Of a stretch of 64,000 nucleotides of DNA, positions 24,413 through 56,744 are shown piece after piece. Numbering within the stretch: position 1 is the first letter of the stretch; each line of letters begins with the position of its first letter. The position numbers and the translations under genes are program-made. The stretch covers positions 2,253 to 66,252 of the forward strand of contig CANSHI010000006.1 in the NCBI GenBank assembly GCA_947646655.1. The letters are read 5' to 3'. The notes below the pieces were generated by a model. It worked only from the letters and a program-made list of their open reading frames with translations. It did no database searches and had not been told where the DNA came from. This DNA is from an uncultured bacterium (GTDB lineage: Bacteria; Bacillota_I; Bacilli_A; RF39; UBA660).

Positions 24413-24609
24413 TAGATCTTCTTTTTTTTGTCAAAAAAAATATTATTGGTAAAATTTGGAAAGAAAAAATAAGAATTTTATTAAATCACTCGCATAAAAT
24501 GATAATAGAGAGAATATTTTTATTAAAGGTATTGAAATGTCTTCGATTTTTTATTAATATATATATAGTATAATAAAAAGTTTTTTATGTGGTAAGGAGT
24601 AAAAATTTT

Positions 24610-27600
24610 ATGAGAAAAAAAGTTGTAGGAATAATTTCGGTATTATTGCTAAATTTACTATGTGTACAAACAGTTTTAGCGGCATCTAGTTTAAATGCCG
24701 ATTTGAATGCAGATAAGCAAAGTTTAAAGGCAGGCGAACAAATAGAACTCACTCTTGCTTTTAACAATTTTAATGACATTAAAAAAGGTATTAATGCTTA
24801 TATGGGAACATTAGAATATGACACTAATATATTTGAAAATGTTGTTGAAAAAAATTTTTTGTGCTTAAACAATTGGGAACAGTTTAAATTTAATCCCTCT
24901 AATGGTAAGCTTGTGGCGATAAGAAAAGTAGGTACTAAAATAGATGAAAATGTTTTAAAAGTTACTTTGAAAGTTAAAGAAAACATAGGAGCTACAAAAA
25001 CAGAAGTTAAGATTAAAAATATAGTAACTTCAGAAGGAAAAAAAGATATTTTTATAAATACTGCTTCTTCAACTATAAACATAATCGAAGAACAAACTAC
25101 AATTCCAACTAAACCAGTTAGCCCATCTAAGCCTTCTAAACCTAACTACAATACTTCAGGAAACAAACCAAATTCATCCGGAGGAAATAAAGTAGAATCT
25201 AACACCTCACCTAATCCAACTGATGAAAATGAAGATGATGAGACAAATAGTGAAGACGATGATGATGATGATCGATTAGATAAAGAAGAATCGAAAGAAC
25301 AATCTTCTAATAAAAATGAATCGACAAATAAAAATGATGATATAGAAGAAAATCCGATTAAAACTACATCTAGTAAATATATATGGGTTCTCATAATAAT
25401 ACTAATCCAAATAATTCTTATAATTTATGTATACTTTAGACATAAAGATAAAAACTCAAATAAACATCTTTCAGTTATGTTTTTAACGATTATATTAGCC
25501 GAATTTATTGGTACAACATGTGCCTTTGGAATCAGTTTTGCAGCTAAAGGTGATTTAAACGGCGACTCTGTTGTCGACTATGCTGATGCCAGTTTATTAG
25601 AACTGCACTTAGTAGATCTTAAAAAATTAGAAAAAGGAAATTATGAAAAAGCTGATATGAATCTAGATGGACAGCTTACTGTTACCGATTTAACTCTTCT
25701 AATTCAAAAGCTAGAAAACAATCTCGATTATGAAGTAACCATCATAAACTTCGAGCCTTCAAATAAACATCCTAACAAAAATCAAGATTTAGATATTAAA
25801 TTTGGCAGTGATGTCAGTTTTGGAGCAATTATTAAGAAGATAATAATCGATGGAAAAGAATACGATGTTACGAAAGAAGCAAATACTTCTGACTATACAA
25901 TTAGAGTTAACTCAGGAAGTGAAGCAGGTCTAAAAAGCTACCATGTAACAGAAGTTATTTTAGACAACAACAAAACAATAAAAGTAGATTATTCTTTCAT
26001 CTTAGATGTCTTAAAAGATAGTCCACACATAACCAATTATCGAGTAGAAGAAAACAAAGACGAATCGAAATTGATATTATTGTTCGACATCGTTGATGAT
26101 GAAGACAGTTTGACTTTAGCAACATTAGACGTTTACAATATAGACCAAGAAATAGTCACACAAACCTCATTAGCTAAAGGTCAAAATAGAATAGAAGTTT
26201 CTGTTGAAGAAACTAAAGAATACAAAGCCTACATTAAATTAGAATACAACTTAAGTGAAGATGAAAATAATACTGAAAGTATGGGTATTGAAAGTTATGA
26301 AAAAGACTTACAGCTAATAATCGATTACAACTTCAATATTTCCAATATAAAAACATATAAAGAAAATAAAGAACAAACTATTTTTGCTATGGGCGACCAA
26401 GTAAAGATTGGCTTCGAAAGTACTAACAGTACAATACACATACCTGCCTTCGTAAAAGTTAATGGAAAAGAATACGAAGTAACAGAAGAGAATGGAAAAT
26501 ACTTTGCAACACTCGACCCATTAAACACTTTAGGAGACTACCAAATCTTAGTCGAAGAAGTCAAATTAGCAAACGGTAAACAATTTGAACTTACAGAGTC
26601 TAATACCATTAATATAACTTGTCAAAAAAGAAAACCAGTTGTCGAAGATTTATCGATTACAGAGTTCACTGAAACAAACGACTTAAAAGTTATGTTCAAT
26701 TTAAACGACGAAGATAGAGCAGTCTCAGACATAACGATTCTTTTACTAGACGTCGATGGAAGTGAAATAGACCAAGTCAAACTATCTCGCGACGAAGTTA
26801 AAGACGATGGAACAGTAAACAAGTTCTTAAAAACTAAGATGACTACTAAATACAAAGTAAAAGTAATCATGAGTTATAATGTAACACAAAACGAAGACGA
26901 AAAAGTAGTCGATGAACTTGCCGCTCTAGAGGAATTTAATGCTGATCCAAGAGCAATAATTAAAAATATTACACCTAACAAAGACTATGTCGAAAAAGGT
27001 GGAGTTCTAAAACTCACATATGAATTAGAGACAAATAAAACAGAAGATGTAACTAGAATACTTGTCAACAACATCAACTGTATAGCCGTCAAACTAGACA
27101 ATGGAAATTATGAAGTTACACTCAATGTCGGCAGTAACAGTGGCTTATATGCCCTAACAACAACACGTCTAACATACAGCGATTCATCCGTTGCAACTAC
27201 TGACAAAACTGTAAATGTTGAAGTACTAAAAAGTAAACCTACTGTCAAAAACTTTACTCAAACTGACGACGTACAAAATCGCGAAGTCACATTAAACTTT
27301 GATGTCGATGATCCTGATAACAGTTTCCTAAACGGAAAAGCAGTTCTTACACTTGATGGTACAAGTACTGAAAGGGAAATCTCTAAAGGACACAATTCTG
27401 TAACTTTCCCAGTTGAAGCTTCAAGAAAATATACATTTGAAGTTAAAGTATCATATGATCTCGATGAACATGCCCTAACTAACAAACCAGAAGAAGATAA
27501 TCGTGTGACTGACGAGACGATTGATACTAAAGAAATTGAACTAATCGCTGATTATGAACTTAACATTTCTAACATTAAGACTTACAACGAGAAAGGCGAA

Positions 27601-30600
27601 ACAAAATACTTTAGCAAATCAGAACCGATTAAAATTAGCTTTGAAAGTACAAATATTACAACTTTCAAACCAGTAAGTGTAGTCATCAATGGAAATACAT
27701 ACCAATTAACAAACACAGATGACACTTACTACTTAACGATTGACAGTCACCGAACTTCCGGTGTTAAAACTGCTAAAATCGAAAAGATAATTTTAAATAA
27801 CTCTAAAGAATTATTTATAACAGAAAACAACGAAATAAAAGTTACAGTACTAAAGGACAAGCCAGTTGTAGAACAATTTGGTTACAAAGAAAACATAGAT
27901 GGAACAATCTCAGCTAACTTCAAAGTAATCGATGAAGAAGATACCATCACTGGTGGAAAAGTACTCATCATCAAAAATGGAGAAACCATCAAAGAACAAG
28001 ACATAGTTAAAAATGATAACACGATCAACTTCCAGCCTGAAGAAAACCAAAATTATTTAGTCAAAGTTTTAGCCGACTATGACTTAGACATGAATGTTTT
28101 AGAAGAAGATGCAAACGAATACACAAATGTTACACTTCTAGAAGCTGACATAACTCTAGGTGCACGTCGCTTTGAAATGAAAGACATCATTAGAACTTCT
28201 ATTTATAAAAATACCGAAAATGGAGTAGTGGAAATCAACACTCTTAGTGAAGCAGATTTAGCTAATCCAAGTGACTACATCGCTAAAGTTTACATGAGAG
28301 AAATGCCAACTTTCTATACAACAGTGACAGGGCATAAAGTAGAAGACGGAAAATTAAAACTAACTTTAGCTTATGACAACGTCGTACAATATTCTCATGA
28401 TAGCAAACAAAATAAATTAGAAATTGAATTTGGCGAACTAAATAATGGTGTTGCTCAAAATATCACATTAGAAGGACTTATCAAAGAAATAGAAGCTAAT
28501 CCATCTGGTTCATTCACACTTACTCGTGACTATGATGCATCTATCATAACGACAAATGAAGCAACATTAATCGCTGCTACATTTACAGGAACATTAAATG
28601 GAAATGGTCATAAAATTTACAATTTAACAAAACCAATGTTCGATACGATAGAATCAGCAACAATTGAAAACATCACTTTTGACACTCCAAAAGTATTTGG
28701 TACAACCAGCCGAGGAACTATTGCCAACAATGCGATTAATTCGACGATTAGAAACATCCACTTAAAAGATCTAACACTTATATCAGGTACAAGTAGAGTT
28801 GGGGGATTAATCGGAGAAGGTTCTTCTACTACCATCGAGCAAATAGAAGTTTCTAACTTTACAATAACGACTGCGGGACACATCAGAATAGCTTCTATCG
28901 TCGGAAACATGACAGGCGGAAGCATTAAAAACTGTGTAATCGATGGAGAATTAAAATCGACACAAAATAAAGATGGAAACGGAATTTCTGGTATTTTAGG
29001 TGCTACTGAAGGAACAGAAATCGTTACAATCGAAAACTGTATTACAAAAGTTAATTATTCAAGTAACGTAAGTCCTCGCTTAAACGGTGATATCGTAGGA
29101 CTTGCATTGAATAGTAATACTTCACTAAAAAACAATGTAAGTTTATCAACTGGATTAAACTTCTACCATGTACATGGTTATTCAATTCATTCTACATCGT
29201 CAAATAACTTTGAAATTATTGAGTCAGAACTAACTTCTAATGCTTCTGATAAAGTTACCCAAATATCTAAAAATGATATTAACGGAGATTTCTTTAAAAA
29301 CACAGCTCACTTTGATGAAACGATTTGGGACTTAAGTGATTCGTCTTATGACAACGTTCCTGAACTTATTTCATTAAAAGAAAACGTAGAGGAAGAAACA
29401 ACTGATAAACCAGAAAACAACAAATTATATATTCCAGATTACACAAGAATCCAAAAAGTTAATGGCTTCACAAACTCTAAAGATATCATATATCACAACT
29501 TAAATAAATTGATGCCTTACTATGATGCCAAATACTTAGTCGAAGATGGATTAAAAATTCCTAATACGAGTGAACTAAACGAAAAAATAATTAAACATAT
29601 TTTACCGTATGCTAATGACTCAATGGTCACATACTTGACTAGAGAAAACTATAATAGCATTTCGAAAATAAAAGTCATCTATGACGACCGAACTGCAAAA
29701 GAGTATAATGTCACATTTAAGGAATTTAAGCAAAATATTGCCATTTACGATATAGAAGGTTTAGACATCGAATACGCATATAGTAACTATACTATAAAAG
29801 AAGATGCTTCTATCGTAGGTACTATCAAAGAATATATTGATAACCTCGATTATACAGCAACACTCGATAGTTTAACAAAGGCCGCGGACAGCAGATTATA
29901 TAAAGATAACTTTAACGAAAAAGTAAAAGCTAAATCTAATGAAATCGCGCTTAAACTATTACAAAATGATACAGACAGTATTTTAACTATCGATAATAGC
30001 ATATTAAATAACAGAATTAAACAACAACTTATTGACAGTGGAAGACTAAACAAAATTATTTATGCATATAACTACTATGATAAGTGGTATGACTTCGAAA
30101 TCGGAGGCTCAAAAGTTACAGACATCTTAATGTTTGAAGGAAAAATATATAAAAATTCGATGACTATCGACAATATGACAAACGAAGTCCTTACAGGAAG
30201 TATGGCCACGAATACGACAAGTGCATTCTATGCAAATAACATTAAAAAATATACTGAAGCTGCAAACTTAGGATTATTCCTCGATGAAATTATTAAAAAC
30301 ATCGGAGGATATGAAGACATCAATGACTGGTTCACAGAGCATTTTACAAAAATAGGATTATTATCTGAAATACCAGTTGAAAATCACCCTGAAGTTAAAT
30401 ATCGTGCATGGGATAGATTAAAAGCATATCAAAACTTTATCTTGCCATTATCTACTTTACCAAAAGATGCTGGATACATCATTTCAGGACCAGCTCAACT
30501 TCAAGTAGGTGCACAAAGAGTATATACAAAAGACCCATCAACTGCACAAGCTACACTTAAAAACACTATTAAAAATCATAGTGCTCTAGTAAAAAGACAA

Positions 30601-39434: not shown

Positions 39435-41324
39435 ATGAATAAAAAACAAAAGATAAGTATAGGATTTATGTTGGTGGCCATGATACTAATGCTTACATTT
39501 GGTGCATATTCATTTTTTATAACAAATGGACAAAACAATATCGATATGGAAACAAACATTAAAGCAGGAGAAATGTCATTGACATTCAGTGATGGAAACA
39601 ATGGAATAAACAAGTCTCTACAGTTTGGTGAAACTATAACAAAGTCTTTTACAATAGCAAATACAGGAAATGTCAGTAGTTCTTTAAGCCTACACTGGAC
39701 AAAATTAATTAATAAATACTTAAATGGCAGTCTCACTTATAATTTAACATGCAAAAACGAACATGAAGATAAAGAGTCAGAAATTATTCTCTTGAGTAAT
39801 GTGCCGACCTCTTATGAGCCATTAGAACAAATATTAGCGGGGGAAATATCAGTAGAAGCTAATTCCACAACGGATTGTAACTTAAATATAAAGTTAAATA
39901 ATACTGAATTTGATCAGACAAATGATATAGAAGCAATATTTCAAACAAACTTTAAAGCCGATCAACCACTTAAATACTTATATTATCTTTTACAAATTGA
40001 TCCCAATGGAGGTACTTGGAATGAGTTCACATCTACTCAAGAATACAGATTACTTAACAACGAAACTTTTAATATTCCCTCGCCTACAAGAATCGGTTAC
40101 ACTTTCGATGGATGGGAAAAATCTGGAAACTCTATTATAGACGGAACAACTTTAACTATGGGTATTGGTAACACAACATTACAAGCAAAATGGATAAAAA
40201 ACAAATATAAAGTGACAATCGATAATGGAATAGACCAACCAATAGAAGAAATTTGTGAATTTGGAAATACATTAAACCTGACTCAACCACTAAAAGAAGG
40301 TTACACATTTACGGGGTGGAGTACAACTGGGGGATCTATAGAAAATAATATTTTATCAATAAGTGAACCAAAAGATATCCGCGTTACAGCAAACTGGATA
40401 ATTAATCGTTACAAATACATCGTTTATCATAATAAAATGAACTTAAATGGTGAAGGCTATACTTTAGTAGAGGCTGACACTGAAGAAAAAGAAGCAGAAT
40501 TTAACTCAATAGTAACTCCTAGTGTGAAAACCTATCAAGGCTTTAAATTACCTCAAACAAAAGATCTAACAATTAAAGCTGAAAATACTTATCCGCCAAT
40601 ATTAAACAAAATAGAATATAATTACGAAAGAAATAAATATAACTTAACCGTTAATTTAAATGGTGGTGCCTCAGAAACAACTGGTGGAGAAATGTATTAT
40701 GAATCTAGTAAAAATTTAGGAATACCAACTAAAAAAGGATACAACTTTACTCACTGGACAACTACTTCAGGAACCATCACAGACAATATTTTCAAAATGG
40801 ATTCTAAAGATGCTACCATAACAGCTAACTTTACCCCCAAAGTCTATACAATAACGTTTAATCCTAATGGAGGAACGACACCTGAAGCAAGCAAACAAGT
40901 GTTATACGATTCAACATATGGATCTCTTCCTATACCAACTTACACTGGATACGAATTTTTAGGATGGTATACAAATAGCACTGATGGTAATCTAATTACG
41001 TCTGATCTTGTTGTCAATCTAGAAAATGATCAAACTCTTTTTGCCAAATGGAAAAGAAAACAAGTTACTATAACTTTAGATTCTCAATATTTCTTCTTTG
41101 ACACTAAAAATACTATATCAACCAAAACAAAAGTAGTCACAGTTGGCGAACCTTATGGAGAGCTAGAAATGCCTAATTCCTATGGTAACAAGCCTAATGG
41201 GCAGATTTGCTCTTTTAAAAGCTGGCAAATAAATGGCAGCGAAATAACAGATAAAACAATAGTAACAATAACATCAGACCATACATTAATCCCAAGAGAA
41301 GGAAGTTGTATCGCAACTGGTTAA
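39435..41324 (+). CDS. Secreted protein: TasA/camelysin-like N-terminal domain plus Listeria-Bacteroides (Flg_new) repeats
   Basis: Signal region ends FGAYSFF (SipW-type look), then AGEMSLTF and FGETITKSFTIANTGNV as in TasA. Repeats: GYTFDGWEKSG, GYTFTGWSTTGG, GYNFTHWTTTSG, GYEFLGWYTNS. Confidence 0.8.
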   Translation: MNKKQKISIGFMLVAMILMLTFGAYSFFITNGQNNIDMETNIKAGEMSLTFSDGNNGINKSLQFGETITKSFTIANTGNVSSSLSLHWTKLINKYLNGSLTYNLTCKNEHEDKESEIILLSNVPTSYEPLEQILAGEISVEANSTTDCNLNIKLNNTEFDQTNDIEAIFQTNFKADQPLKYLYYLLQIDPNGGTWNEFTSTQEYRLLNNETFNIPSPTRIGYTFDGWEKSGNSIIDGTTLTMGIGNTTLQAKWIKNKYKVTIDNGIDQPIEEICEFGNTLNLTQPLKEGYTFTGWSTTGGSIENNILSISEPKDIRVTANWIINRYKYIVYHNKMNLNGEGYTLVEADTEEKEAEFNSIVTPSVKTYQGFKLPQTKDLTIKAENTYPPILNKIEYNYERNKYNLTVNLNGGASETTGGEMYYESSKNLGIPTKKGYNFTHWTTTSGTITDNIFKMDSKDATITANFTPKVYTITFNPNGGTTPEASKQVLYDSTYGSLPIPTYTGYEFLGWYTNSTDGNLITSDLVVNLENDQTLFAKWKRKQVTITLDSQYFFFDTKNTISTKTKVVTVGEPYGELEMPNSYGNKPNGQICSFKSWQINGSEITDKTIVTITSDHTLIPREGSCIATG

Positions 41325-41358
41325 ACTAGAAATCAAAAAAACTTCTCATGTTATGACA

Positions 41359-41388
41359 ATACTAAAAGTTAAAACTTTTAGTATTTTT
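41359..41388 (+). terminator. Rho-independent terminator
   Basis: ATACTAAAAGT / ACTTTTAGTAT perfect 11-bp stem followed by a T-run. Confidence 0.8.
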
Positions 41389-41493
41389 ATATGAATAAAT
41401 GAATTAGAGTTTACGTCAAATTTTGACAATATTTTCCCCATACCTATGTAAATACGACTCTTTATGCTATAATTATTGAGAATAGGAGGACAA

Positions 41494-43503
41494 ATGAAAA
41501 AAATTCTTACTATATTATTAATAATTATATCGATATTCATATTCGATCAAAACGTATCAGCATTTACTTATAAAAGAGGAATTGTTACTAGCAAATACAC
41601 CATAAAAACTGCACCCTCATCGAGTGCCTCTGCAGTAAAAAACGATACTGGAGGAAGTGCCAGCTTATCATATCCTGAACCTGTAGAAGTTTTAGGGGAA
41701 AGTGGTAATTTTTATCAAATAAAATTTTGTAAAGGAGGTTTTTTCTACACTGGCTACATCGACAAAAGCAAAATAAATGTCTATACATACGAAACAGATG
41801 ATGCTTATGAAAATTCTCTTAAAAACCAAGGTTTCCCTGCCGACTATGCAAGAAAATTAGCTATACTTCATGCCATGCATCCAAACTGGTCATTCACACC
41901 TTCCTATACAGGTAGAACTACTGGAGGAATGGATTTCTACACTGCCGTAAATGGAGAAGCTAGCTCAGTAGGAAGAAATGCCATCAATGGTTCCAATGAA
42001 TCTCTTCGATCAACTGAAGACGGTGCTTACAAAAATGGAACATGGATACCTGTTGCTGGTAATGGATGGTATGCAGCTAGTCGTCAAACTATCGCTTTCT
42101 TTATGGATCCTCGTAACTTTTTAGACGAAGGAGAAGTATTTATGTTTGAGAATCTAGGCTTCAATCCAGCAACGCAAACAAAAGATATTGTAAACAAAGT
42201 TTTGGCAGGAACTTTCATGAATAATCCATTTGAATGTGGTGCCAATGCAGTCTCATGTGCAACAGGAACACACTACTATGCTGATACATTTATGACTGCT
42301 GGAACAGATAAAAAAGTTAGTCCCGTTCACTTAGCGAGTAGAGTTAAACAAGAGCAAGGATCTAACGGTTCAATTTTATCTCTAGGTAAAGGTTATAATG
42401 GAAAATATGTTGGATACTATAATTTCTTTAATGTAGGAGCTTCTGGAAAAACCGATGCCGAAGTCATCACTAATGGCTTTGAATGGGCAGTCAAAAAAAG
42501 CTGGAACAACCAACACAAATCGATTTATGACGGTTCTGATTTAATCGCGAACAATTATGTCAAAAGAGGACAATCAAACCTTTACTATCAAAAGTTTAAT
42601 ACAATCGTACCAGATTATTATGGTAACCAATACATGCAAAATGTTAAAGCTGCTTTCTCAGAAGGAAACAGTAATTACGAATCTTACTTTAAATCATTTT
42701 CAAAAATAGAAGAATGGGAAAAATCAACTTACGATTTCCTTATTCCTATTTATCAAAACATGCCTTCCTACACGACTCTCGATGTCAGTGGAAATGCCGA
42801 TACGACTTTAAAAAGCCTTGCCGTTGAAGGATGTAATCTTAATCCTGAATTTCAGTCAAGTGCAACATATTATGAATGCTTTGCATCAAAATCGACTTCA
42901 GAAATAAATATTCAAGCAGCTACGACTAATGCAAATGCCAAACTAGAAAATCCTGGCAAAGTAACCATTACAAATGATGAACAAACCGTTGAAGTAAAAG
43001 TTACAGCAATCAATGGTTCGACTGGTATTTATACGATCGTTGTAAAAAGAATAGACACCGATGGTGTAAGTCCTGAAAAAATATTAAATAGCATTGGTAT
43101 TAAAACTAACAACAACTTAATATCTAATATAGAAATGAACTCAGACGTTTCAAATATCATAAGCAACATTAAAAACCACTATCATTTTGCCCAAGTTACT
43201 GTCAAAGATGCCAATGGCAAACAGATTACTGAAGGCAAAGTCAAAACGGGACAAAGTGTTACAATCAATAATGCTGGACTAACGAACACATATAAAATAG
43301 TACTTTATGGAGATCCTGTAGGAGACGGAAATATCGATATACTAGATCTACTTATGGTTCAAAAACACATACTAAGATCAAAAGTCTTAACTGGAGAGTA
43401 TTTTACAGCAGCTGACATAAATCATGATGGCAAAGTTGACATTCTAGATTTACTATTAGTCCAAAAGCATCTTTTAAATAAATACCAAATAAGTCAAGAA
43501 TAA
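41494..43503 (+). CDS. Secreted peptidoglycan hydrolase (glucosaminidase/GH73-like) with SH3b, cadherin-like beta-sandwich and C-terminal dockerin
   Basis: ATG 41494 follows AGGAGGA. Signal peptide, SH3b-like segment (GESGNFYQIKF), VSPVHLASRVKQEQG ... YYNFFNVGASG ... LYYQKFN, cadherin-like TLKSLAVEGCNLNPEF, and dockerin GDGNIDILDLLMVQKHIL / DINHDGKVDILDLLLVQKHLL. Confidence 0.85.
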   Translation: MKKILTILLIIISIFIFDQNVSAFTYKRGIVTSKYTIKTAPSSSASAVKNDTGGSASLSYPEPVEVLGESGNFYQIKFCKGGFFYTGYIDKSKINVYTYETDDAYENSLKNQGFPADYARKLAILHAMHPNWSFTPSYTGRTTGGMDFYTAVNGEASSVGRNAINGSNESLRSTEDGAYKNGTWIPVAGNGWYAASRQTIAFFMDPRNFLDEGEVFMFENLGFNPATQTKDIVNKVLAGTFMNNPFECGANAVSCATGTHYYADTFMTAGTDKKVSPVHLASRVKQEQGSNGSILSLGKGYNGKYVGYYNFFNVGASGKTDAEVITNGFEWAVKKSWNNQHKSIYDGSDLIANNYVKRGQSNLYYQKFNTIVPDYYGNQYMQNVKAAFSEGNSNYESYFKSFSKIEEWEKSTYDFLIPIYQNMPSYTTLDVSGNADTTLKSLAVEGCNLNPEFQSSATYYECFASKSTSEINIQAATTNANAKLENPGKVTITNDEQTVEVKVTAINGSTGIYTIVVKRIDTDGVSPEKILNSIGIKTNNNLISNIEMNSDVSNIISNIKNHYHFAQVTVKDANGKQITEGKVKTGQSVTINNAGLTNTYKIVLYGDPVGDGNIDILDLLMVQKHILRSKVLTGEYFTAADINHDGKVDILDLLLVQKHLLNKYQISQE

Positions 43504-43516
43504 AAGGAGTAAATAA

Positions 43517-44926
43517 ATGAATAAAATTAGACATATTATTGTTGTTCTATTTACAACATTCGCATTTTTTACAAGTGTAAATGCCGCTAGTGGTTCTATT
43601 ACAGCATCCACAGGCACAAAAGTAGCAACAGTCGGCTCGACTTTTAAAGTCACTGTTAAACTAAATTGCTCAGAAGCTTTAGGGGCTTGGGATTTTGGAA
43701 TCTCTTATGACAGTTCCAACATCTCACTCGTATCGGGAGATACCCACGTTGTCGACTCAACTAAAGATGGAACATCACGCAGTAAAACTTATACATATGT
43801 TTTTAAAGCGATTAAATCGGGAACTGCTAATATACGTATAACGGGTGCTGCCATGACTGGATTCGATGAAATGAGAACATTTACACCTTCGACATCAGGT
43901 ACATCCGTAACTGTTAAGACAAAAGCAGAAGTTGAAGCGAGTTACAGTAAAGATAACAACTTAAAAAGCTTAAGTGTTGAAGGATATGAAATATCACCAG
44001 CATTTAATAAAGATACTACAGAGTACTCAGTCTCTGTTCCTGATACAGTAACATCCATAAAAATAAATGCTTCTCCAAATGATCAAACCGCTAGAGTAAC
44101 AAATACAGGAGATATCGACATATCAGAGGGAGTTAACAAAATAGAACTAGTTGTGACTGCCCAAAATGGAAGTACAAAGACTTACACTTTGATTGTCAAC
44201 GTTCAAGATTTAAATCCGATCACTGTAACGAACGGTGGTATCGATTACACAGTAGTTAAAAAAGCTGATCTTCTAACTGAACCAGTGGGACATACTCCTG
44301 TTACTATAACAATAAATGGTGAAGAAGTCCCCGCATTTAAAAGTGAACTTACTAACTTCACAATTGTCGGTTTAAAAGACGCCGACGGCAAAATTTCTCT
44401 CTTCATATATGATGAGGAAACGAACACATATACTCCATACATCGAGCTTAAAGGATCAAGCCTAATACTTTTTCCAAAAGAATTGCCAGAAGTATTAACT
44501 GGTTTTACAAAGACCACTCTCGACATCAATGAAATACCATGTGAAGTATTAACAAACGACATAGACCAAAGCCTCATTGTCATATACGCCTTAAATATCG
44601 AAAATGGTGAGGAAGGATATTACATATATGACAAAAATACTAATGGCTTCGTGACTTACACAAAAAGCTTATTCGACAAATTCATAGAAGAAAATAAAGA
44701 ACTAAAACTATATTTTCTAGCCTCAATAAGTGGAGCAGGTGTACTACTCTTAATATCAATTTATCTCGCTTCAAAAAAGGCTAAGCTTAAACGTCTTTTA
44801 AAAAAGTTTTCTAAAATAGAAGAAAATAAAGATGAAATAATAGAAAACGACGATTTAATTGAAGAAACTGTATCAGAAGAAATAGTCATTCAAAATCGAC
44901 CTAAAAAGAAAAAAAAGCGTAAATAA
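43517..44926 (+). CDS. Membrane-anchored cohesin protein (signal peptide, cohesin-like domain, cadherin-like beta-sandwich, C-terminal TM anchor with basic tail)
   Basis: VGSTFKVTVKLNCSEALGAWDFGISYDSSNISLVSGD; NLKSLSVEGYEISPAFNKDTTEYSVSV ... TAQNGSTKTYTLIV; TM helix YFLASISGAGVLLLISIYLA followed by a K-rich tail. Confidence 0.82.
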   Translation: MNKIRHIIVVLFTTFAFFTSVNAASGSITASTGTKVATVGSTFKVTVKLNCSEALGAWDFGISYDSSNISLVSGDTHVVDSTKDGTSRSKTYTYVFKAIKSGTANIRITGAAMTGFDEMRTFTPSTSGTSVTVKTKAEVEASYSKDNNLKSLSVEGYEISPAFNKDTTEYSVSVPDTVTSIKINASPNDQTARVTNTGDIDISEGVNKIELVVTAQNGSTKTYTLIVNVQDLNPITVTNGGIDYTVVKKADLLTEPVGHTPVTITINGEEVPAFKSELTNFTIVGLKDADGKISLFIYDEETNTYTPYIELKGSSLILFPKELPEVLTGFTKTTLDINEIPCEVLTNDIDQSLIVIYALNIENGEEGYYIYDKNTNGFVTYTKSLFDKFIEENKELKLYFLASISGAGVLLLISIYLASKKAKLKRLLKKFSKIEENKDEIIENDDLIEETVSEEIVIQNRPKKKKKRK

Positions 44927-44955
44927 AATCGGCATTCCAAATGCCGTTTTTTTTA
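44926..44955. terminator. Bidirectional terminator between convergent genes
   Basis: CGGCATT / AATGCCG stem flanked by an A-run and a T-run. Confidence 0.75.
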
Positions 44956-47298
44956 TGCAGACTGTTTATTTTTCATTCTTAAATACATTTTTTTCACTTT
45001 AGTTGCCGGTCCCAAATTATTAACACTTTCAGGATTTTCGATTATACTTATTCTTAGTCCAATTTTTCGTATAACAGACATAAAAGCTGATAGATAATGC
45101 GTAGCATCTTTCAAATATTCTTCTTGAAGTGAAGGATTACTTAAATTCATGCCACATCTAATAAATAATACGAATTTATCTCTTTCATCTAAAAGACCTA
45201 TGGCTTCATCGACGATACTTTTTTTCTTATCTTGAAAATAATCATACACAGTTTTTATTTTTGATCTCATATTATCGAATCTTAAAGTTTTCAATAATCG
45301 GCCTAATCTCGGTAACACTACATGATCTAATTTATTCTGTTCTAGAGTAGATAGTGATTTAGAAAAAAATGCGTTTAAATTATCTCCATATCTTTTTTTG
45401 AGTAATAAGAAACAATCATTAGGTAATTGACTAGCAGCCCAAACTATTTCTAAAAGACTATAGTCAGGAAATATTTCTGTTAAAGTTAAAATATTTCTTT
45501 TCCTTCCTTTATACATTTGCTCAAGTAATCTCTGTATTCGAGGAATCAAAGAATCTTTCATAAAATTACTTAAACTTGAATCCCAATATCTTTGGTAAGG
45601 ATTTTCTAAATTAAACCCATATTTCAAAAACAATACCATTCTATCATAATCTGATAATATATTTAAAACAGAATCCACTTGCTCTTTGGAATATTCATAA
45701 AATAAATCATAAATAGTAATAATATTTCTAGGATAATTTAATTTATATTTGTACAACTGATCAGTCCTTAAAGCACTGCCCAATTTTATTAAAGACTGCA
45801 ACAACATAGGCATACTATCTTCTTTAAAATTTAAACATAAGTCATCGTCTAAAGAAGACATGATCACATCCTGATCAAATGCATCTATAAAAGACATCAC
45901 TCTGTTAATATCTTTTTCACTTAAACTAAAAAACATTTCTTTAAAAATATTGAATAGACTGTTTTTGCTATAAATAAGCTCTATAAACTTTTTGATCCAT
46001 AATCTTACTTCGCTCAAAATATCCACATTATAACAACTAAAAATTTTATCCAGCATTTTATTCCATTCATCCATAGACACATACTTACTTAAATTAAATC
46101 CGATAAACTCGAAAATAAGCTTTTGAATTTTAAATGGGAAAAACGAAATAGCAAATTCGACAACATCTTGAGATTCATAAAAATACTCATAAAACTTTTT
46201 ATAATTTTCATTTAATGCGCCATTTCTTTCTTTAATACTATTGTCGAGAAAAGATAGTAGTTTAGAATGAATTGACAAATCACGTGCTGTTAGCTTCTTC
46301 TTCCGAAACAAATTATTTGAACCTAGTTTATAAATTTTAAAAAAGCTTACTAAATCATCTTGGTTTAATCTACTAACTGCATCTATAATATCTTCACTAC
46401 CATAGGGCAACTCATTAAAAATTGATGTATAATGCAACTCATCGATATCGTAATCTCCATAAAGTAATCCAGATGTTACAGGATCATATAATCCACAAGT
46501 TCTCCCACTCAATCCATCGAAATATAAATTAAATATACCTGTTTTATTCAACTTAATTTTTCTACATTGATATCTATTTATATAATTTTCTATTTTTTTG
46601 TATAATTTTTCATCCAAATATATAGCATTTAAACGACCGATATTTACAATTTCACTAGTTTCACATGGATCTTGATTAGCGTGTTCAGCATTAAATTCTC
46701 TAAACATATTTTTTACGAATCCTCTATCTATTTGGGATGGTAATTCATAATCCAATACTTCCACTAACATATAAGAGAGCGCATATTTTATCATTAAAAA
46801 TATTTCAAGAGAAGAGTAAGGTACTCTTTCAAATATTTCACTTAAAGTCATCTGCTCATATTCGAATAAACCTAATCTCATTTTAGTTACCAATTGGACG
46901 ATCTCAGGCAATTTATTAAACTTTTCTAAAAAGTTAGAAAATAAATCTCTATAATCACTTTGTTCACTCACATCATTTTCATGATCCACCAACATTGTAT
47001 TGACTACAACTTCTTCTTCGGTATGCAAAGAAGAAAAAGCACATTCTTTAGACAAAATATTTTTAATTTTTCTTCGCAAAGAAATTTTTACCGATTGATA
47101 AGCATAAGTAGAAAATTCAATCCCTTTTGTAATATCGAAAAGATCTACTGCATGTGTGAGAATGACGACTCCTTCTTGAAACAGATCATTTTTTATAAAA
47201 TAAAAGTCCGAATAACAGTCATGTATTACTTGCATTACTAATCCATAATTAGCATTTCTCGAGCATTCATATCCCCAGCCCAAAACTTTAAAAAACAT
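44953..47298 (-). CDS. Giant sigma-70-like protein: sigma regions 2 and 4 followed by about 580 aa of degenerate region-4-like repeats (main reading frame)
   Basis: DLFQEGVVILTHAVDLFDITKGIEFSTYAYQSVKISLRRKI (region 2). LPEIVQLVTKMRLGLFEYEQMTLSEIFERV (region 4). Repeats such as LSDYDRMVLFLKYGFNLENP and LDERDKFVLFIRCGMNLSNP. Confidence 0.75.
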   Translation of the reverse strand: MFFKVLGWGYECSRNANYGLVMQVIHDCYSDFYFIKNDLFQEGVVILTHAVDLFDITKGIEFSTYAYQSVKISLRRKIKNILSKECAFSSLHTEEEVVVNTMLVDHENDVSEQSDYRDLFSNFLEKFNKLPEIVQLVTKMRLGLFEYEQMTLSEIFERVPYSSLEIFLMIKYALSYMLVEVLDYELPSQIDRGFVKNMFREFNAEHANQDPCETSEIVNIGRLNAIYLDEKLYKKIENYINRYQCRKIKLNKTGIFNLYFDGLSGRTCGLYDPVTSGLLYGDYDIDELHYTSIFNELPYGSEDIIDAVSRLNQDDLVSFFKIYKLGSNNLFRKKKLTARDLSIHSKLLSFLDNSIKERNGALNENYKKFYEYFYESQDVVEFAISFFPFKIQKLIFEFIGFNLSKYVSMDEWNKMLDKIFSCYNVDILSEVRLWIKKFIELIYSKNSLFNIFKEMFFSLSEKDINRVMSFIDAFDQDVIMSSLDDDLCLNFKEDSMPMLLQSLIKLGSALRTDQLYKYKLNYPRNIITIYDLFYEYSKEQVDSVLNILSDYDRMVLFLKYGFNLENPYQRYWDSSLSNFMKDSLIPRIQRLLEQMYKGRKRNILTLTEIFPDYSLLEIVWAASQLPNDCFLLLKKRYGDNLNAFFSKSLSTLEQNKLDHVVLPRLGRLLKTLRFDNMRSKIKTVYDYFQDKKKSIVDEAIGLLDERDKFVLFIRCGMNLSNPSLQEEYLKDATHYLSAFMSVIRKIGLRISIIENPESVNNLGPATKVKKMYLRMKNKQSA

Positions 47299-47354
47299 TC
47301 TTTCTGCTTTTCATTAGTTAAAGGCTCTGGCAAATTAAAAATATCGAAATGCAT
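47238..47354 (-). CDS. Out-of-frame 5' fragment of the same sigma-like gene (38 codons)
   Basis: GAAGGGG RBS, then MHFDIFNLPEPLTNEKQKECFLKFWAGDMNAREMLIMD*. The GDxxAREMLI stretch is the usual sigma region 1.2/2.1 lead-in that the main frame lacks. Confidence 0.6.
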   Translation of the reverse strand: MHFDIFNLPEPLTNEKQKECFLKFWAGDMNAREMLIMD

Positions 47355-47442
47355 AAAATACAGCCCCTTCTTTTTATGGGAAATATAATACCATATCTTC
47401 TAAAAAATTGACATAAAAAATTCACATTATAATAAATTTAAT

Positions 47443-48201
47443 ATGAAGGGAGAGATTGATTTGAAAAAGATTATCAATTATGAGAAGGATATTGAGTTTA
47501 AAACTACTATAGGAGAAATATGCACTATTAGCCTAGAACACGACTTTACAGTAGACGACAGAACATTAAAAGGAGAATTTATAATAGAAGGCGACTATAA
47601 GCCAAATTCATTAAGTTTAAACAAGGAGGCCTTTACATACCGCCTACCACTAGAATACGATTTAGAAGATACATGTGACATCGAATCTTTAAACTATGAT
47701 ATAGACAATTTCGAGTACAATTTAAACGATAACAAACTAGAAGTATATATCGATTTTGGTGTACGCTATGAAGAAAAAACTGTCACACCAACTATTCCTG
47801 TCATTACTGAAGAAGACCTAAATAAAGACTTTGAAACTATCGAGCCTTCTGACCGCTTAGACAGTGTTGATCTAGATATAAACTTAGAAGAAACTATTGA
47901 ACAAAATGACATCAAGCCAATTACGACAGAAATCGATACAGAGTTCACTATCGAAGAAGAAAAGGAAGAAGAAGAGGAAATTCCTAATAGACTTGACGAT
48001 GAAGAACAAGAACTCATTCTAGATTCTACAATCGATGATGAATTTATTACTTATCACGTTCACATTGTGAGAGAAGGGGAAACACTAGAGACTATCGCCA
48101 TGAAATATGGTACTACAATAGACATTATTAAAGAATATAATTCTATCGAAATGCTTGAATTAAAATCTAAACTTATTATACCAGACTGCCAAAATGAATA
48201 G
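47443..48201 (+). CDS. spoVID: SpoVID/SipL-like spore coat morphogenetic protein (N-terminal SPOCS-like region, acidic middle, C-terminal LysM)
   Basis: LysM: YHVHIVREGETLETIAMKYGTTIDIIKEYNSI. Acidic linker. Followed by a ysxE-like gene, as in Bacillus. Alternative TTG start at 47461 after GGGAGAG. Confidence 0.7.
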   Translation: MKGEIDLKKIINYEKDIEFKTTIGEICTISLEHDFTVDDRTLKGEFIIEGDYKPNSLSLNKEAFTYRLPLEYDLEDTCDIESLNYDIDNFEYNLNDNKLEVYIDFGVRYEEKTVTPTIPVITEEDLNKDFETIEPSDRLDSVDLDINLEETIEQNDIKPITTEIDTEFTIEEEKEEEEEIPNRLDDEEQELILDSTIDDEFITYHVHIVREGETLETIAMKYGTTIDIIKEYNSIEMLELKSKLIIPDCQNE

Positions 48202-49087
48202 CTTAGAACTGATAAATAAACTATATAAACCTTATCGTATCACAAAAAAAGGCGTAACAACTATAATCGAATCGATGGACGGTAAATATGTCGTTAAACC
48301 CAAAAATGAAAAAGATGAAAACTCTTTATTCAAATATTTATCACACTGTGGTTTTAACCATTTTCCGACAATAGTTGATGAATCTCGTTCAGATGTTTTA
48401 ATATATAAATACATTGATAATATCGATTATCCCAAAGACCAAAAAGCTATCGACATGATTAAAGTTGTCGCTTCACTTCATTCCAAAACTAGTTACAGGA
48501 GTGAAGTAAGAGAAGATAAGTATAAAGAAATATATAATAATATTAAAAGCAACCTCAATTACAGTAAAGACGAATATAACAAACTAATTTTAGAAATCGA
48601 AGAAAAGATTTTCATGAGTCCAAGTGAATATCTTTTTATAAGAAATTCATCCAAACTCATGAACCAAATCGCTTTTTGTGAGAGCAAACTTGATGAATGG
48701 TATGAATCCGTCAAAGAAAAAAGAGAAACACGAATAAGTGTAATTCATAACAACCTAAGTCTCGACCATTATTTAAAAGGAGAAGACGAAGCACTTATAA
48801 GCTGGGGAAACTCGACAAACGACAGTCCCATTTTAGATATTTACAACTTTTATGAAAAAGAAGCCTTAAATCTCGAATTTTCTAGCATTTTAAAAGAATA
48901 CTTTCGTTATTTTGACTTAGATGAAGATGAAAAAAATTTACTATTCATTCTTCTTTGCCTACCACATAAAATCGATTTTAAAAGTAATGAGTTAGATTCT
49001 TGTATGAATATCGGTAGAACCCTTGACTATGTTTTCAAAACCGAATATTTAGTAAGGCCATATTATGCGATAGATAATGAAGAATAA
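48194..49087 (+). CDS. ysxE: CotS/YsxE-family spore coat kinase-like protein
   Basis: Kinase-like fold hints (VIHNNLSLDHYL). Its position directly after the spoVID-like gene matches the B. subtilis spoVID-ysxE operon. Confidence 0.7.
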   Translation: MNSLELINKLYKPYRITKKGVTTIIESMDGKYVVKPKNEKDENSLFKYLSHCGFNHFPTIVDESRSDVLIYKYIDNIDYPKDQKAIDMIKVVASLHSKTSYRSEVREDKYKEIYNNIKSNLNYSKDEYNKLILEIEEKIFMSPSEYLFIRNSSKLMNQIAFCESKLDEWYESVKEKRETRISVIHNNLSLDHYLKGEDEALISWGNSTNDSPILDIYNFYEKEALNLEFSSILKEYFRYFDLDEDEKNLLFILLCLPHKIDFKSNELDSCMNIGRTLDYVFKTEYLVRPYYAIDNEE

Positions 49088-54740: not shown

Positions 54741-55652
54741 ATGGATGAAGATTTTCTTGACGTTACTGAAAATAGTAAAAAAGTTTGGATATTTTTCATC
54801 TTCATCGTAGTACTTATAGTAATCCTCGGTTATTTTTTAATTTTTAGAAAGTTCAATTTTGGTGCTAAAACGATTCAACTAGAGTATGGCAGTACTCTAA
54901 GCGAAAATGTAGAGGATTATCTTACCAAAAAAGTTGTCAATCCTAAAGATTACAAATTAAATACTTCTAATGTAAATCCAAACGAAATAGGAACTTATAC
55001 TTACACAATAACTTATAATAATATAACCAAAAAAGGCACAGTAAATGTCGAAGATACTACACCTCCAGATTTCACCTTACAAGAATTTATCGTCGAAGAG
55101 GGTAGTGAAACCTATTATCTAGGTGATTTTCTAGCAACTTGCGAAGATGTGTCCAAGCCTTGCTTAGTGTCATTAAAAAATGAAAAAGATGAATCTCTAT
55201 TTAACAAAGTAGGAACTCACACCATCGATATAGTCGTAACCGATTTATATGGAAACAAAAAAGAAGGCCAAGCCACTTTAAAAGTTGTTGAAAAAGGTTC
55301 TTATGTTAACCCCAAAACTACTGATCTTGAAATAGCTTCTAATTCAAGAGAAGATTCCTCTTTTAAAGGTACAGTATATAAGAAACTCGAAAAGGCACTC
55401 GAACCCAACAGTGATGCAGCAGATGATGTGATGAGCGAGATAAGTGCTATAGATTTAGAACAATATATCATGACAAATTATGCAGGCTATCGCTTAGTAT
55501 CTTCAGAAATTATTGAATTGTATAACAAAAGTTCTTATGTCGTCGGCTATTCGATAGAAGCCACTATTTCTAATGGAACCGAAAAAGTTATATACATAGA
55601 AGAGTCTAAAGTGCCATCTAACGAGACAACGGATCAGACCAGTGAAGAATAG
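54741..55652 (+). CDS. N-terminally anchored extracytoplasmic protein with an Ig-like domain
   Basis: TM helix VWIFFIFIVVLIVILGYFLIF. TTPPDFTLQEF ... GTHTIDIVVTDLYGNKKEGQATLKV resembles bacterial Ig-like domains. Confidence 0.68.
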   Translation: MDEDFLDVTENSKKVWIFFIFIVVLIVILGYFLIFRKFNFGAKTIQLEYGSTLSENVEDYLTKKVVNPKDYKLNTSNVNPNEIGTYTYTITYNNITKKGTVNVEDTTPPDFTLQEFIVEEGSETYYLGDFLATCEDVSKPCLVSLKNEKDESLFNKVGTHTIDIVVTDLYGNKKEGQATLKVVEKGSYVNPKTTDLEIASNSREDSSFKGTVYKKLEKALEPNSDAADDVMSEISAIDLEQYIMTNYAGYRLVSSEIIELYNKSSYVVGYSIEATISNGTEKVIYIEESKVPSNETTDQTSEE

Positions 55653-55736
55653 TTTATGACAAACTGTTCTTTTATTATTTTATTTTTTTAAAACTTGTGG
55701 TAAAATAAAAATATAAAAAGAATAGGTGGTTAACTT

Positions 55737-56744
55737 ATGCTAAACATAAATTTTCTAATTTTACTTAACTTCTTGAATTTGAATAATCCTACACAAACTT
55801 TTGAAACTACTAAAATCGAGTACAAAGCACCTGCTAAAGCAGCTTCTAGTAACAATTTTCTTTCTACAGTTGAATTTAAAGATATCAGCTTTAAGTTTGA
55901 TAAAGAAAATACTAAATATACGATAGAAGTTCCCTATTCGAAAGACAAATTAGACTTAACTTATACCCAAGAGGACAAAACTTCAATTGTAGAAGTAGTA
56001 GGCGATGACGTTTTACAGGTCGGTAATAATTCATTAGCCATTTTAGTAACCGCAGAAGACGGTTCGCTGAGAGAGTATGACTTCTCAATAATTAGAAGTG
56101 AAGATAACACGATAGTGCAAAGTGATCCAAATTCTATTAAAGACGTTCTTACGAGCAGTGATTCTAAAAAGCTTACAGTAAACATGAGTACTGACAATTT
56201 ACTTTTGGATAGCAAAACCATCGACACTTTAAAGGAAAGCAAAAAAACTCTTGTATTCAGATGGGCTGATTACAATAACAAATTCCTTTCATCTCTAAGT
56301 ATAGATGGATCTAAGATAGAAAGTAGTAGCGAAATAATTCCTAAAATTAAAAACACTATTTCTAATAATAAGCTAAAAGATTATTTAAAAGACATCGAAT
56401 ATACATCACTTAGCACTAAAAACACTAATATTCCTAATAACAGTATTTATAAAATGGCAGTTACAACTACAGAAGACTTATACTATTTATTTTACTATGA
56501 AGATGATCTATTAATTCAAAAGCCTTTAAGAGTAATCGATAATGCGATAGAATTTGAAATCCAAGATGGCATCGATTATGCAATTACTACTAAAAGTAAT
56601 AAACCGAAAAGCAAAGAGTCATCAATCGGAGGAACCCATTGGCTTTGGATTTCTGTCTTCATAACAGTATTATTTATCGTTTTCTTTGCTATAACAAAAT
56701 ATACTGCTTTAAAATACGTTCAGCATAGCCACCATAAAGACTAA
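55737..56744 (+). CDS. Cadherin-like beta-sandwich domain protein with a C-terminal TM anchor
   Basis: NNFLSTVEFKDISFKFDKENTKYTIEV ... LAILVTAEDGSLREYDFSIIR. C-terminal TM helix LWISVFITVLFIVFFAI. AGGTGG RBS. Confidence 0.72.
   Translation: MLNINFLILLNFLNLNNPTQTFETTKIEYKAPAKAASSNNFLSTVEFKDISFKFDKENTKYTIEVPYSKDKLDLTYTQEDKTSIVEVVGDDVLQVGNNSLAILVTAEDGSLREYDFSIIRSEDNTIVQSDPNSIKDVLTSSDSKKLTVNMSTDNLLLDSKTIDTLKESKKTLVFRWADYNNKFLSSLSIDGSKIESSSEIIPKIKNTISNNKLKDYLKDIEYTSLSTKNTNIPNNSIYKMAVTTTEDLYYLFYYEDDLLIQKPLRVIDNAIEFEIQDGIDYAITTKSNKPKSKESSIGGTHWLWISVFITVLFIVFFAITKYTALKYVQHSHHKD

Follow-up and report, generated by a model that had tools for sequence, protein, structure and literature searches.

Sigma factors are among the best-studied bacterial proteins. 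To our knowledge, they have been elaborated by N-terminal regions, by non-conserved inserts, and by single sensor domains at the C terminus. Extracytoplasmic function (ECF) sigma factors with C-terminal extensions have been described for ECF41, ECF42, ECF44, and ECF56 (SigG1 with SnoaL_2) (PMC8999054, PMC7826278; PMC7730460), and sigma factors, TFB, and TFIIB have been seen as products of internal duplication of a helix-turn-helix (HTH) domain (PMC4581349). Here we analyze a gene on the minus strand, from position 47354 to 44953, of a 64,000-nt stretch of contig CANSHI010000006.1 (the window, to which all coordinates refer), which has ~30% G+C and belongs to an uncultured gut bacterium of the class Bacilli. 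This single gene comprises a sigma-70-family core (sigma2 and a probable sigma4), a linker of ~100 amino acids (aa), and six modules of ~77 aa. Taken as a whole, our results make it likely that the window carries a young pseudogene of a lineage-specific sigma factor with six modules derived from sigma region 4, and that its intact relatives are alternative sigma factors with a multivalent tail. The features of the gene are as follows.

47241–47354, minus strand: 5′ coding fragment, codons 1 to 38, covering regions 1.2/2.1 (...FWAGDMNAREMLIMD), with stop TAG at 47240–47238; aligns to the N termini of the orthologue P0035 and of other family members.
44953–47298, minus strand: open reading frame (ORF) of 781 aa; homologous coding resumes at 47241 (LVMQVIH...), and a possible restart ATG at 47235 lies within TAGTAATG.
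47243–47244, minus strand: deletion scar, located by alignment with the conspecific allele L152; the 10 bp lost (CATAATACTA) encode part of the HNTR conserved in region 2.1.
47062–47333, minus strand: sigma2 domain (regions 2.1 to 2.4), broken by the deletion; Pfam Sigma70_r2 and NCBIfam sigma models.
46756–46947, minus strand: probable sigma4 domain, its recognition helix degenerate (VPYSSLEIFLMIKY); matched to a sigma4 profile by hhalign.
46444–46755, minus strand: linker of ~104 aa, common only to P0035; no match to the repeat profile.
46213–46443, minus strand: repeat 1, degenerate; hhalign P = 1.5e-6, probability 90%.
45958–46212, minus strand: repeat 2, degenerate; hhalign P = 1.3e-7, probability 94%, 68 columns.
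45730–45957, minus strand: repeat 3, marginal; hhalign P = 1e-3, probability 22%, in register.
45499–45729, minus strand: repeat 4, canonical; HMM E = 8e-21, AF2 pLDDT ~88–89.
45268–45498, minus strand: repeat 5; HMM E = 2e-9.
45049–45267, minus strand: repeat 6; HMM E = 3e-11, BLASTP against repeat 4 E = 8e-11.
44956–45048, minus strand: basic tail of 31 aa at the C terminus, lacking the sigma4-like terminal domain that is frequent in the family.

The sigma core was assessed on a reconstructed protein of 800 aa, in which the two frames are joined across the break. Its residues 8 to 182 matched the NCBIfam SigK subfamily model at E = 6e-15, and SigE and many other sigma-70 models matched too. 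Against Pfam Sigma70_r2 (PF04542, cut-off 24 bits) the reconstruction scored 22.4 bits, a narrow miss that reflects the lost part of region 2.1; the intact N terminus of the conspecific contig L152 scored 32.2 bits over profile positions 1 to 66 of 71, which identifies a sigma2 domain, and P0035 scored 35.3 bits. The Pfam models r4 (PF04545) and r4_2 (PF08281) did not match the sigma4 segment in the target, L152, or P0035. With hhalign, the segment at 46947–46756 matched a sigma4 profile, built from relatives and the window's own SigA, at 96% probability (P = 5e-9, 51 gapless columns). Region 3 is absent, and in the recognition helix VPYSSLEIFLMIKY the usual polar and basic residues of the [IL]SQSxVSR[IL] seen in relatives have become hydrophobic; since the intact orthologue has the same hydrophobic helix, this is a feature of the clade and not a sign of decay. 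Scores for the target, L152, and P0035 stayed below the equivalog cut-offs for SigK (41.7, 60.1, and 69.3 bits; cut-off 298.65) and SigE (27.7, 41.9, and 64.1 bits; cut-off 348.6) and below that of the sigma70-ECF superfamily model TIGR02937 (28.5, 41.6, and 39.0 bits; cut-off 42.9). MzaA, the sigma factor of the anti-phage MZA system (NF041931, cut-off 800 bits), was matched only over the region 2 segment, at 27.4 bits with NCBIfam and 18.4 with PADLOC. The core is closest to SigK/SigE-type sigma factors and, in many relatives, to the RpoD type.

The array behind the core was delimited with a hidden Markov model (HMM) built from 357 modules of relatives (consensus KTIYEYFSEYSKEEIDEVISKLSEEEKELLKLRYGEDLENPVKSKKLTKEEKKKFYNSLIPKIKRLLENKEKK). 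The HMM matched ORF residues 528–600, 608–671, and 682–746 strongly, with the E values listed above for repeats 4 to 6, and residues 299–342, 367–421, and 454–489 weakly, though in phase. For repeats 1 to 3, segments of the target and the orthologue were compared by hhalign with the family profile, from which the target's own rows had been removed; the linker, used as a control in the same comparison, gave no match. Internal BLASTP of module against module reached E values down to 8e-11. We define the family by two or more modules that match the repeat HMM downstream of a sigma core; the target has three strong matches of this kind, two further modules supported by profile comparison (five in all), and a marginal sixth, with a period of ~77 aa.

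Several profile comparisons connect the module to sigma region 4. The repeat profile aligned with the sigma4 profile at 93.6% probability (hhalign, P = 2e-7, 52 columns), spanning module positions 12 to 68 and sigma4 positions 2 to 53 of 62. When the repeat HMM was run over all ORFs of the window, the sole other significant match was to SigA residues 290–317, in region 4.1 (E ~1e-6). Among PDB sequences, all matches with E < 0.1 were to SigA, RpoD, SigB, FliA, or another sigma factor, over region 4, the values for region 4 of SigA, RpoD, and FliA being 0.007 to 0.04. At E < 0.01, Pfam r4 and r4_2 matched 14 and 10, respectively, of 105 family modules, and in whole-protein scans they matched relatives' modules repeatedly, at profile positions 1 to 29 only; in the target's modules neither matched even at E < 10, and a match over a full-length module was not obtained. 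AF2 models of the module (pLDDT 88–89) have four helices: a short one (TIYD), two equivalent to those of sigma4.1, and, after a 13-residue loop, a single helix of 23 residues, with a conserved Pro at the place where the recognition helix would begin. A three-module model had a pTM of 0.49, which suggests that there is no fixed packing between modules, in the manner of beads on a string; it had no significant match among PDB structures because the inter-module geometry is undefined. In Foldseek searches of the PDB nearly all of the top 50 matches were sigma factors over domain 4, at scores that are not significant (E at least 0.38, TM 0.33–0.40), and a search of a viral structure library gave nothing significant. 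Together, these comparisons support the view that the modules are homologous to sigma region 4 with a diverged fold in which, as modeled, the HTH is not formed, and they are most simply explained by tandem duplication of sigma region 4. The true module fold could still be an HTH whose helices were merged by AF2; as it stands, the HTH-less model argues against sequence-specific DNA reading in the style of sigma4.

The architecture is not confined to the window. A positional orthologue, P0035, is intact, 770 aa long, and 32% identical, colinear over its full length with the same six-module layout. It is syntenic, adjoining a convergent cadherin-like gene that is 68% identical to that of the window, versus 32% for the gene itself; the gene evolves fast. 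At the corresponding position near dnaG-sigA, 80 related species representatives lack the gene, and tblastn matched only SigA in them. The two closest species have, in the slot divergent from the spoVID-like gene, an unrelated ORF without a Pfam match, 540 aa in L004 (2629–4251) and split into 285 and 270 aa in L005 (2495–4189); on reading, this ORF appears internally duplicated, and it may be another fast-evolving gene at the same position.

Finding the family required a sensitive search. A word-indexed search with the whole protein returned only conspecific alleles, species-representative genomes searched directly with the target protein returned nothing, and a protein search with the short repeat profile gave no match; the family emerged only with an exhaustive HMMER search. 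With the C-terminal 601 aa as query, that search yielded 266 cluster representatives at E ≤ 1e-3 (97 at E ≤ 1e-10), with lengths of up to ~1700 aa, so that the module family comprises at least 266 cluster representatives, almost all from metagenome-assembled genomes (MAGs) of uncultured gut Bacilli. Approximately 85 of the top 149 have a sigma core ahead of the repeats, either a short SigK/E-like core at the extreme N terminus or a full RpoD-like core (r1.2 to r4) at residues 200–460, as in P0009 (1465 aa, 11 modules), whereas P0011, P0016, and P0020 consist of repeats only. Module number ranges from 1 to at least 12. A conserved sigma4-like domain of ~95 aa occurs in 95 of the 149 members, at or near the C terminus in at least 73, and is absent from the target and P0035. 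This domain (...EAIi.sLRfGlvddkyFs..eIa.fLgI...) lies, for example, at residues 1351–1465 of P0009, 519–637 of P0011, and 525–639 of P0016; it weakly matches the authentic sigma4 of the same proteins and looks like a less diverged terminal copy.

Searched with a degenerate DNA pattern for the module, species-representative genomes yielded 66 loci, 55 of them with true repeats, nearly all labeled as gut MAGs of uncultured Bacilli, Tenericutes, or “Clostridium sp.” and often with two or three tandem paralogues. Adjacent paralogues of this kind were seen in L090, L110, L115, L122, L127, L128, and L147, with three repeat-only genes in a row in L127, and a sigma paralogue lacking repeats lies nearby in eight family loci. 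Family genomes also hold a normal dnaG-sigA; MAG Lapin-005__bin3, for instance, gives both L065 and L101. Members are annotated at source as “hypothetical protein” or “sigma-70 family RNA polymerase sigma factor” and nothing more specific; the module is covered by no model in Pfam, NCBIfam, PHROG, or PADLOC, the last two giving only generic sigma matches, and a literature search found no description of a sigma core joined to region 4 repeats. A weak match to the NCBIfam model for the MG284/MPN403 C-terminal domain (27 bits; cut-off 37.3), a domain on which we found no literature, was set aside. The alignments and the breadth of the family indicate that this is a real, lineage-specific sigma-factor architecture, previously undescribed.

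An earlier note on this DNA, made from the sequence alone, had read it as a minimal sigma-70 family factor followed by six modules of 70 to 75 aa resembling region 4, in an architecture that it did not recognize. The peptide strings it quoted are all present, and the sigma2-sigma4 assignment (for sigma4, by profile comparison), the likeness to region 4, and the lack of a curated family covering the architecture were borne out; its module count holds for five, repeat 3 being marginal, at a slightly longer period. Of the checks it proposed, Pfam scans placed Sigma70_r2 just under its cut-off in the target and gave no r4 or r4_2 match there, and structure prediction returned the sigma4.1-like helices with the HTH drawn as one long helix. 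A survey of homologues and their neighbors, also proposed there, led to the gut Bacilli family. The frame of ECF sigma factors with extensions, in contrast, did not fit, the core resembling the SigK/SigE type, or RpoD in many relatives, and staying under the ECF cut-off.

The window copy does not have an uninterrupted reading frame. The conspecific contig L152 (92–93% nucleotide identity) reads AREILIMHNTRLVMQ / AREILIMHNTRLVMQVIYDCY in a single frame; the window lacks CATAATACTA between 47244 and 47243, which removes the conserved HN..LV part of region 2.1 and shifts the frame. Upstream, a 38-codon ORF in a different frame starts at ATG 47354, reads MHFDIFNLPEPLTNEKQKECFLKFWAGDMNAREMLIMD, and ends in TAG TAA. 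The earlier note had attached this out-of-frame fragment to the sigma factor; the fragment is real, and its cause is the 10-bp deletion, a disruption that the note had not anticipated. Six assemblies of the species yielded no intact allele, and every conspecific assembly covering the relevant part carries a disabling lesion, of four types.

Allele A (window and L002): 10-bp deletion.
Allele B (L153 and L154 (P0006); junction seen in P0008): 545-bp deletion (47354..46810), entire sigma domain lost.
Allele C (L001): 545-bp deletion as in allele B and a 513-bp in-frame deletion (46203..45691).
Allele D (L152): N terminus intact; nonsense codon after ...DMFR, 1-nt deletion, and 339-bp in-frame deletion.

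The 545-bp junction, which fuses the upstream GLYF to LEIFLMIKY, was seen in L001 (10039–10042; a haplotype ~93% identical to the window) and in P0008, whose sequence resembles the window haplotype; L153 and L154 (~98% identical) start at that point. Judging from these sequences, the deletion either spread by recombination or arose more than once. The ratio of nonsynonymous to synonymous substitution rates (dN/dS) between the window and L152 was 0.27 for the sigma part and 0.19 for the C-terminal part, and 0.25 against L001, with most neighboring genes at 0.01–0.07. Values of 0.19–0.27 therefore point to moderate purifying selection during most of the strain divergence and to independent losses, which these ratios suggest are recent. 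Because of the 10-bp deletion here and the damage to every covering conspecific allele, the window copy is most likely a young pseudogene that at most yields an N-terminally truncated product. The earlier note had named a decayed pseudogene with no intact homologues as the outcome that would speak against its reading; the window copy is indeed most likely a pseudogene, whereas P0035 and hundreds of family members are intact.

It might be objected that the two frames join as a plausible sigma N terminus, and that the gene is intact, with a break owed to faulty assembly or sequencing or to programmed frameshifting. We give this almost no credence: L002, an independent contig from an ENA metagenome, has the identical sequence with the deletion; NCBI, Logan, and ENA all list this 781-aa product; relative to L152, exactly 10 bp are cleanly missing, and with them the conserved HNTR; and no slippery heptamer lies at the break. 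A more serious alternative, though one we still hold to be unlikely, is that the locus functions in pieces: translation would restart at ATG 47235 (TAGTAATG), whose start overlaps the stop TAG 47240–47238, and give a protein of 760 aa, or only the repeat part would matter and the species would be shedding its sigma domain toward a repeat-only form such as P0011, P0016, and P0020. All four allele types strike the sigma domain or the sigma-repeat junction and leave repeats 4 to 6 open, both internal deletions (513 and 339 nt) are in frame, the C-terminal dN/dS is 0.19, and repeat-only members do exist in the family. Yet no Shine-Dalgarno sequence precedes ATG 47235 or the internal ATG of the sigma-deleted alleles, where the GGGG-ATG spacing is ~24 nt; the nonsense codon, 1-nt deletion, and 339-nt deletion of L152 are typical of decay; a low dN/dS is equally expected if the lesions are recent; and two deletions would both be in frame by chance with a probability of 1/9. 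In the reading we favor, that of a young pseudogene with intact relatives acting as alternative sigma factors, the core of those relatives would bind RNA polymerase and initiate transcription, and the array, each module of which pairs an acidic sigma4.1-like half with a basic long helix, would probably form a flexible, multivalent sigma4-like tail that modulates where, or how strongly, the holoenzyme engages, through partner proteins or nucleic acid. The array probably does not read −35 elements one by one, because the model lacks an HTH, the net charge is small, and the base-contacting positions are replaced; a role in protein interaction or as a low-specificity tether fits these three properties of the modeled module slightly better. 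Some observations weigh against this reading. The recognition helix of the core is hydrophobic even in the intact orthologue, so that the clade may not act as conventional sigma factors; the structural match of the module to sigma4 is not significant, its C-terminal half being modeled as one long helix with a conserved Pro; the role of the array is argued from composition and homology in a family found only in uncultured organisms; and the C-terminal ORF stays open in all alleles while repeat-only members exist, so that the repeat part may retain residual function.

For the array of the intact relatives, other roles have to be weighed. It could be an in-cis mimic of sigma4 whose modules compete for the beta-flap or for sigma4-binding regulators, either as auto-inhibition or as a decoy or sponge for, e.g., phage anti-sigma proteins. 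The modules retain the sigma4.1 helices and the last helix while positions that we take, from a mapping to E. coli sigma70 residues, to be base-contacting are replaced; the best Foldseek matches are sigma4 in complexes with G1 ORF67 and WhiB proteins; and variable copy number, fast evolution, tandem paralogues, and frequent losses would all suit such a device. We nevertheless regard it as rather unlikely, since the Foldseek scores for these complexes are not significant, PADLOC and PHROG returned nothing beyond generic sigma matches, and no conserved partner gene stands beside family members, only another sigma paralogue being recurrent. We attach somewhat less weight still to a tail that binds or organizes DNA, each module being a working sigma4-type HTH that reads repeated upstream elements or coats DNA. 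The module has the length of sigma4, its conserved PK[IM]KRLL aligns with the recognition helix, the second half is basic in each module (+4.6, with −3.1 in the first half), and a complete sigma4-like HTH domain ends many relatives; against this, AF2 draws one continuous helix rather than an HTH, at pLDDT ~93, the TM to sigma4 is at most 0.40, each module carries a net charge of only ~+1.5, some of the family's proteins (several) being acidic as a whole, and the window holds no conspicuous tandem DNA elements that an array might read except one 13-bp doublet. That the modules are unrelated alpha-helical repeats, their likeness to sigma4 being convergent or due to chance, is very improbable: the missing Pfam r4 match in the target's modules and the non-significant Foldseek scores would allow it, but the profile-profile P value is 2e-7, searches of the window and of the PDB alike single out sigma region 4.1, many modules of relatives are recognized by Pfam r4 and r4_2, and the modules are nearly always fused to sigma factors. 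A broader proposal, which we think has only a small chance of being right, is that the arrays are a new regulatory device of uncultured gut Bacilli, either a multivalent decoy or sponge that titrates sigma4-binding proteins (phage anti-sigma factors, host activators) or a new kind of promoter engagement in which the module string and a terminal HTH tether the holoenzyme; the repeated independent gene loss in this species would then reflect an arms race or a changing selective regime and not mere decay.

Signals around the gene were also located.

47364–47370, minus strand: Shine-Dalgarno-like GAAGGGG, 9 nt 5′ of ATG 47354, in an arrangement identical to that ahead of the intact orthologue in L083.
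47385–47414, minus strand: promoter-like site (ATGTCA, 18-nt spacer, TG-n-TATTAT; extended −10) from a consensus scan, a candidate only.
44930–44946, no single strand: bidirectional terminator-like hairpin between the gene and the convergent cadherin-like gene, common to both.

Matches to the promoter consensus are not more frequent here than in shuffled sequence, so that the promoter-like site is weak evidence. It is overlapped by a 13-bp unit, TAAAAAATTCACA, present in 2.1 tandem copies (47401–47427) within the 88-bp intergenic region that separates the divergent sigma-like and spoVID-like genes. Beyond this region lie the spoVID-like LysM gene and ysxE, followed by dnaG and sigA, and on the other side the cadherin-like surface protein gene is convergent. 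At 47443–49087, the start of a YsxE-like spore coat protein (TIGR02904, 105 bits, below the cut-off) is overlapped by the LysM protein, which has 252 aa and bears this domain at its C terminus. The pair, located directly upstream of dnaG-sigA, resembles the spoVID-ysxE arrangement of B. subtilis and implies a spore-forming organism. A link of the family to sporulation was considered, given spoVID-like/ysxE here and cotJB/cotJC and sleB-like genes beside other members, and rejected as too weak, such genes being scattered throughout the genomes of spore formers. When the neighborhoods of family loci were clustered, no conserved partner (an anti-sigma factor, for example) emerged, a further sigma paralogue being the sole recurrent neighbor.

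The window's SigA is 87–90% identical to that of four MAGs and 75–82% identical to many labeled Bacilli, Tenericutes, Erysipelotrichaceae, Coprobacillus sp. CAG:605, Mycoplasma sp. CAG:776, and Candidatus Coprovivens; lineages of this kind have been described as fast-evolving relatives of Mycoplasmatales with mixed sporulation capacity (PMC10868615). Seven contigs (L003, L004, L005, L021, L023, L049, and L054) were deposited as “uncultured Muribaculaceae bacterium” though they are clearly low-G+C Bacilli, and the label is probably a taxonomic error because they carry a dnaG-sigA operon with SigA 79–90% identical to the window's. Elsewhere in the window, a 2881-aa ORF (24589–33234) joins a type I dockerin domain to the N-terminal region of an M26 IgA1 protease (matched at 135.7 bits in three stretches), and 39435–44926 and 54741–56744 hold a cluster of probable surface proteins with Flg_new (Listeria-Bacteroides) repeats, a SagB-like glucosaminidase with dockerin, and two cadherin-like proteins; dockerins are notable in a small-genome lineage of gut Bacilli. 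The Flg_new-repeat gene at 39435–41324 has a dN/dS of 0.19 between the window and L001 (with a low dS of 0.11), far above its neighbors.

For annotation, the window gene should be marked as a frameshifted pseudogene, and the ~75-aa module merits a profile of its own to replace “hypothetical” labels. A complete sigma factor trailed by 1 to at least 12 copies of region 4, often with a terminal sigma4-like domain, would represent a new theme in sigma-factor architecture. It is found in a large group of gut Bacilli that are uncultured and evolve fast, and whose gene regulation is little known. The family diverges rapidly, changes its copy number, and forms tandem paralogues, and in this species the gene has been lost repeatedly and independently. 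Should the array modulate how polymerase is recruited, or sequester factors that bind sigma4, it would represent a new mechanism in the control of transcription initiation.

The closest described systems each share part of this architecture. With Group 3-type sigma factors of Firmicutes (SigK/SigE-like), the N-terminal ~200 aa align end to end (profile positions 22 to 210 of 235) and share the GD..AR..LI.HN..LV lead-in and the FSTYA motif, whereas the scores of 42–68 bits lie far from equivalog cut-offs of 252–349, region 3 is missing, the recognition helix is hydrophobic, and ~580 aa of sigma4-derived modules follow the core. Extended ECF sigma factors likewise join a minimal sigma2-sigma4 core to an extra C-terminal region, which in the characterized cases regulates the sigma factor in cis; their extensions, however, are single domains of other folds (SnoaL, TPR, Cys-rich) and not arrays of sigma4 copies, and the core described here scores under the sigma70-ECF superfamily cut-off (28.5–41.6 versus 42.9 bits). 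Sigma region 4 itself (Sigma70_r4/r4_2; e.g., PDB 4g8x, S. aureus sigmaA domain 4) equals the module in length, its sigma4.1 helices are clearly alignable (KEEIDEVISKLSEEEKELLKLRYG versus KEQIEDVLGSLNDREQKVLKLRFG), and the final helix aligns too, but in the module the HTH is predicted as a loop and one long helix, the base-contacting positions are not conserved, there is an extra short N-terminal helix (TIYEYF), and the TM-score is only 0.33–0.40. The duplication proposed for sigma factors, TFB, and TFIIB embodies the same idea, that of initiation factors growing by a repeated HTH-containing unit; there it is an ancient, fixed pattern of four units, whereas here it appears to be recent and variable, follows a complete sigma factor, and belongs to one bacterial lineage.

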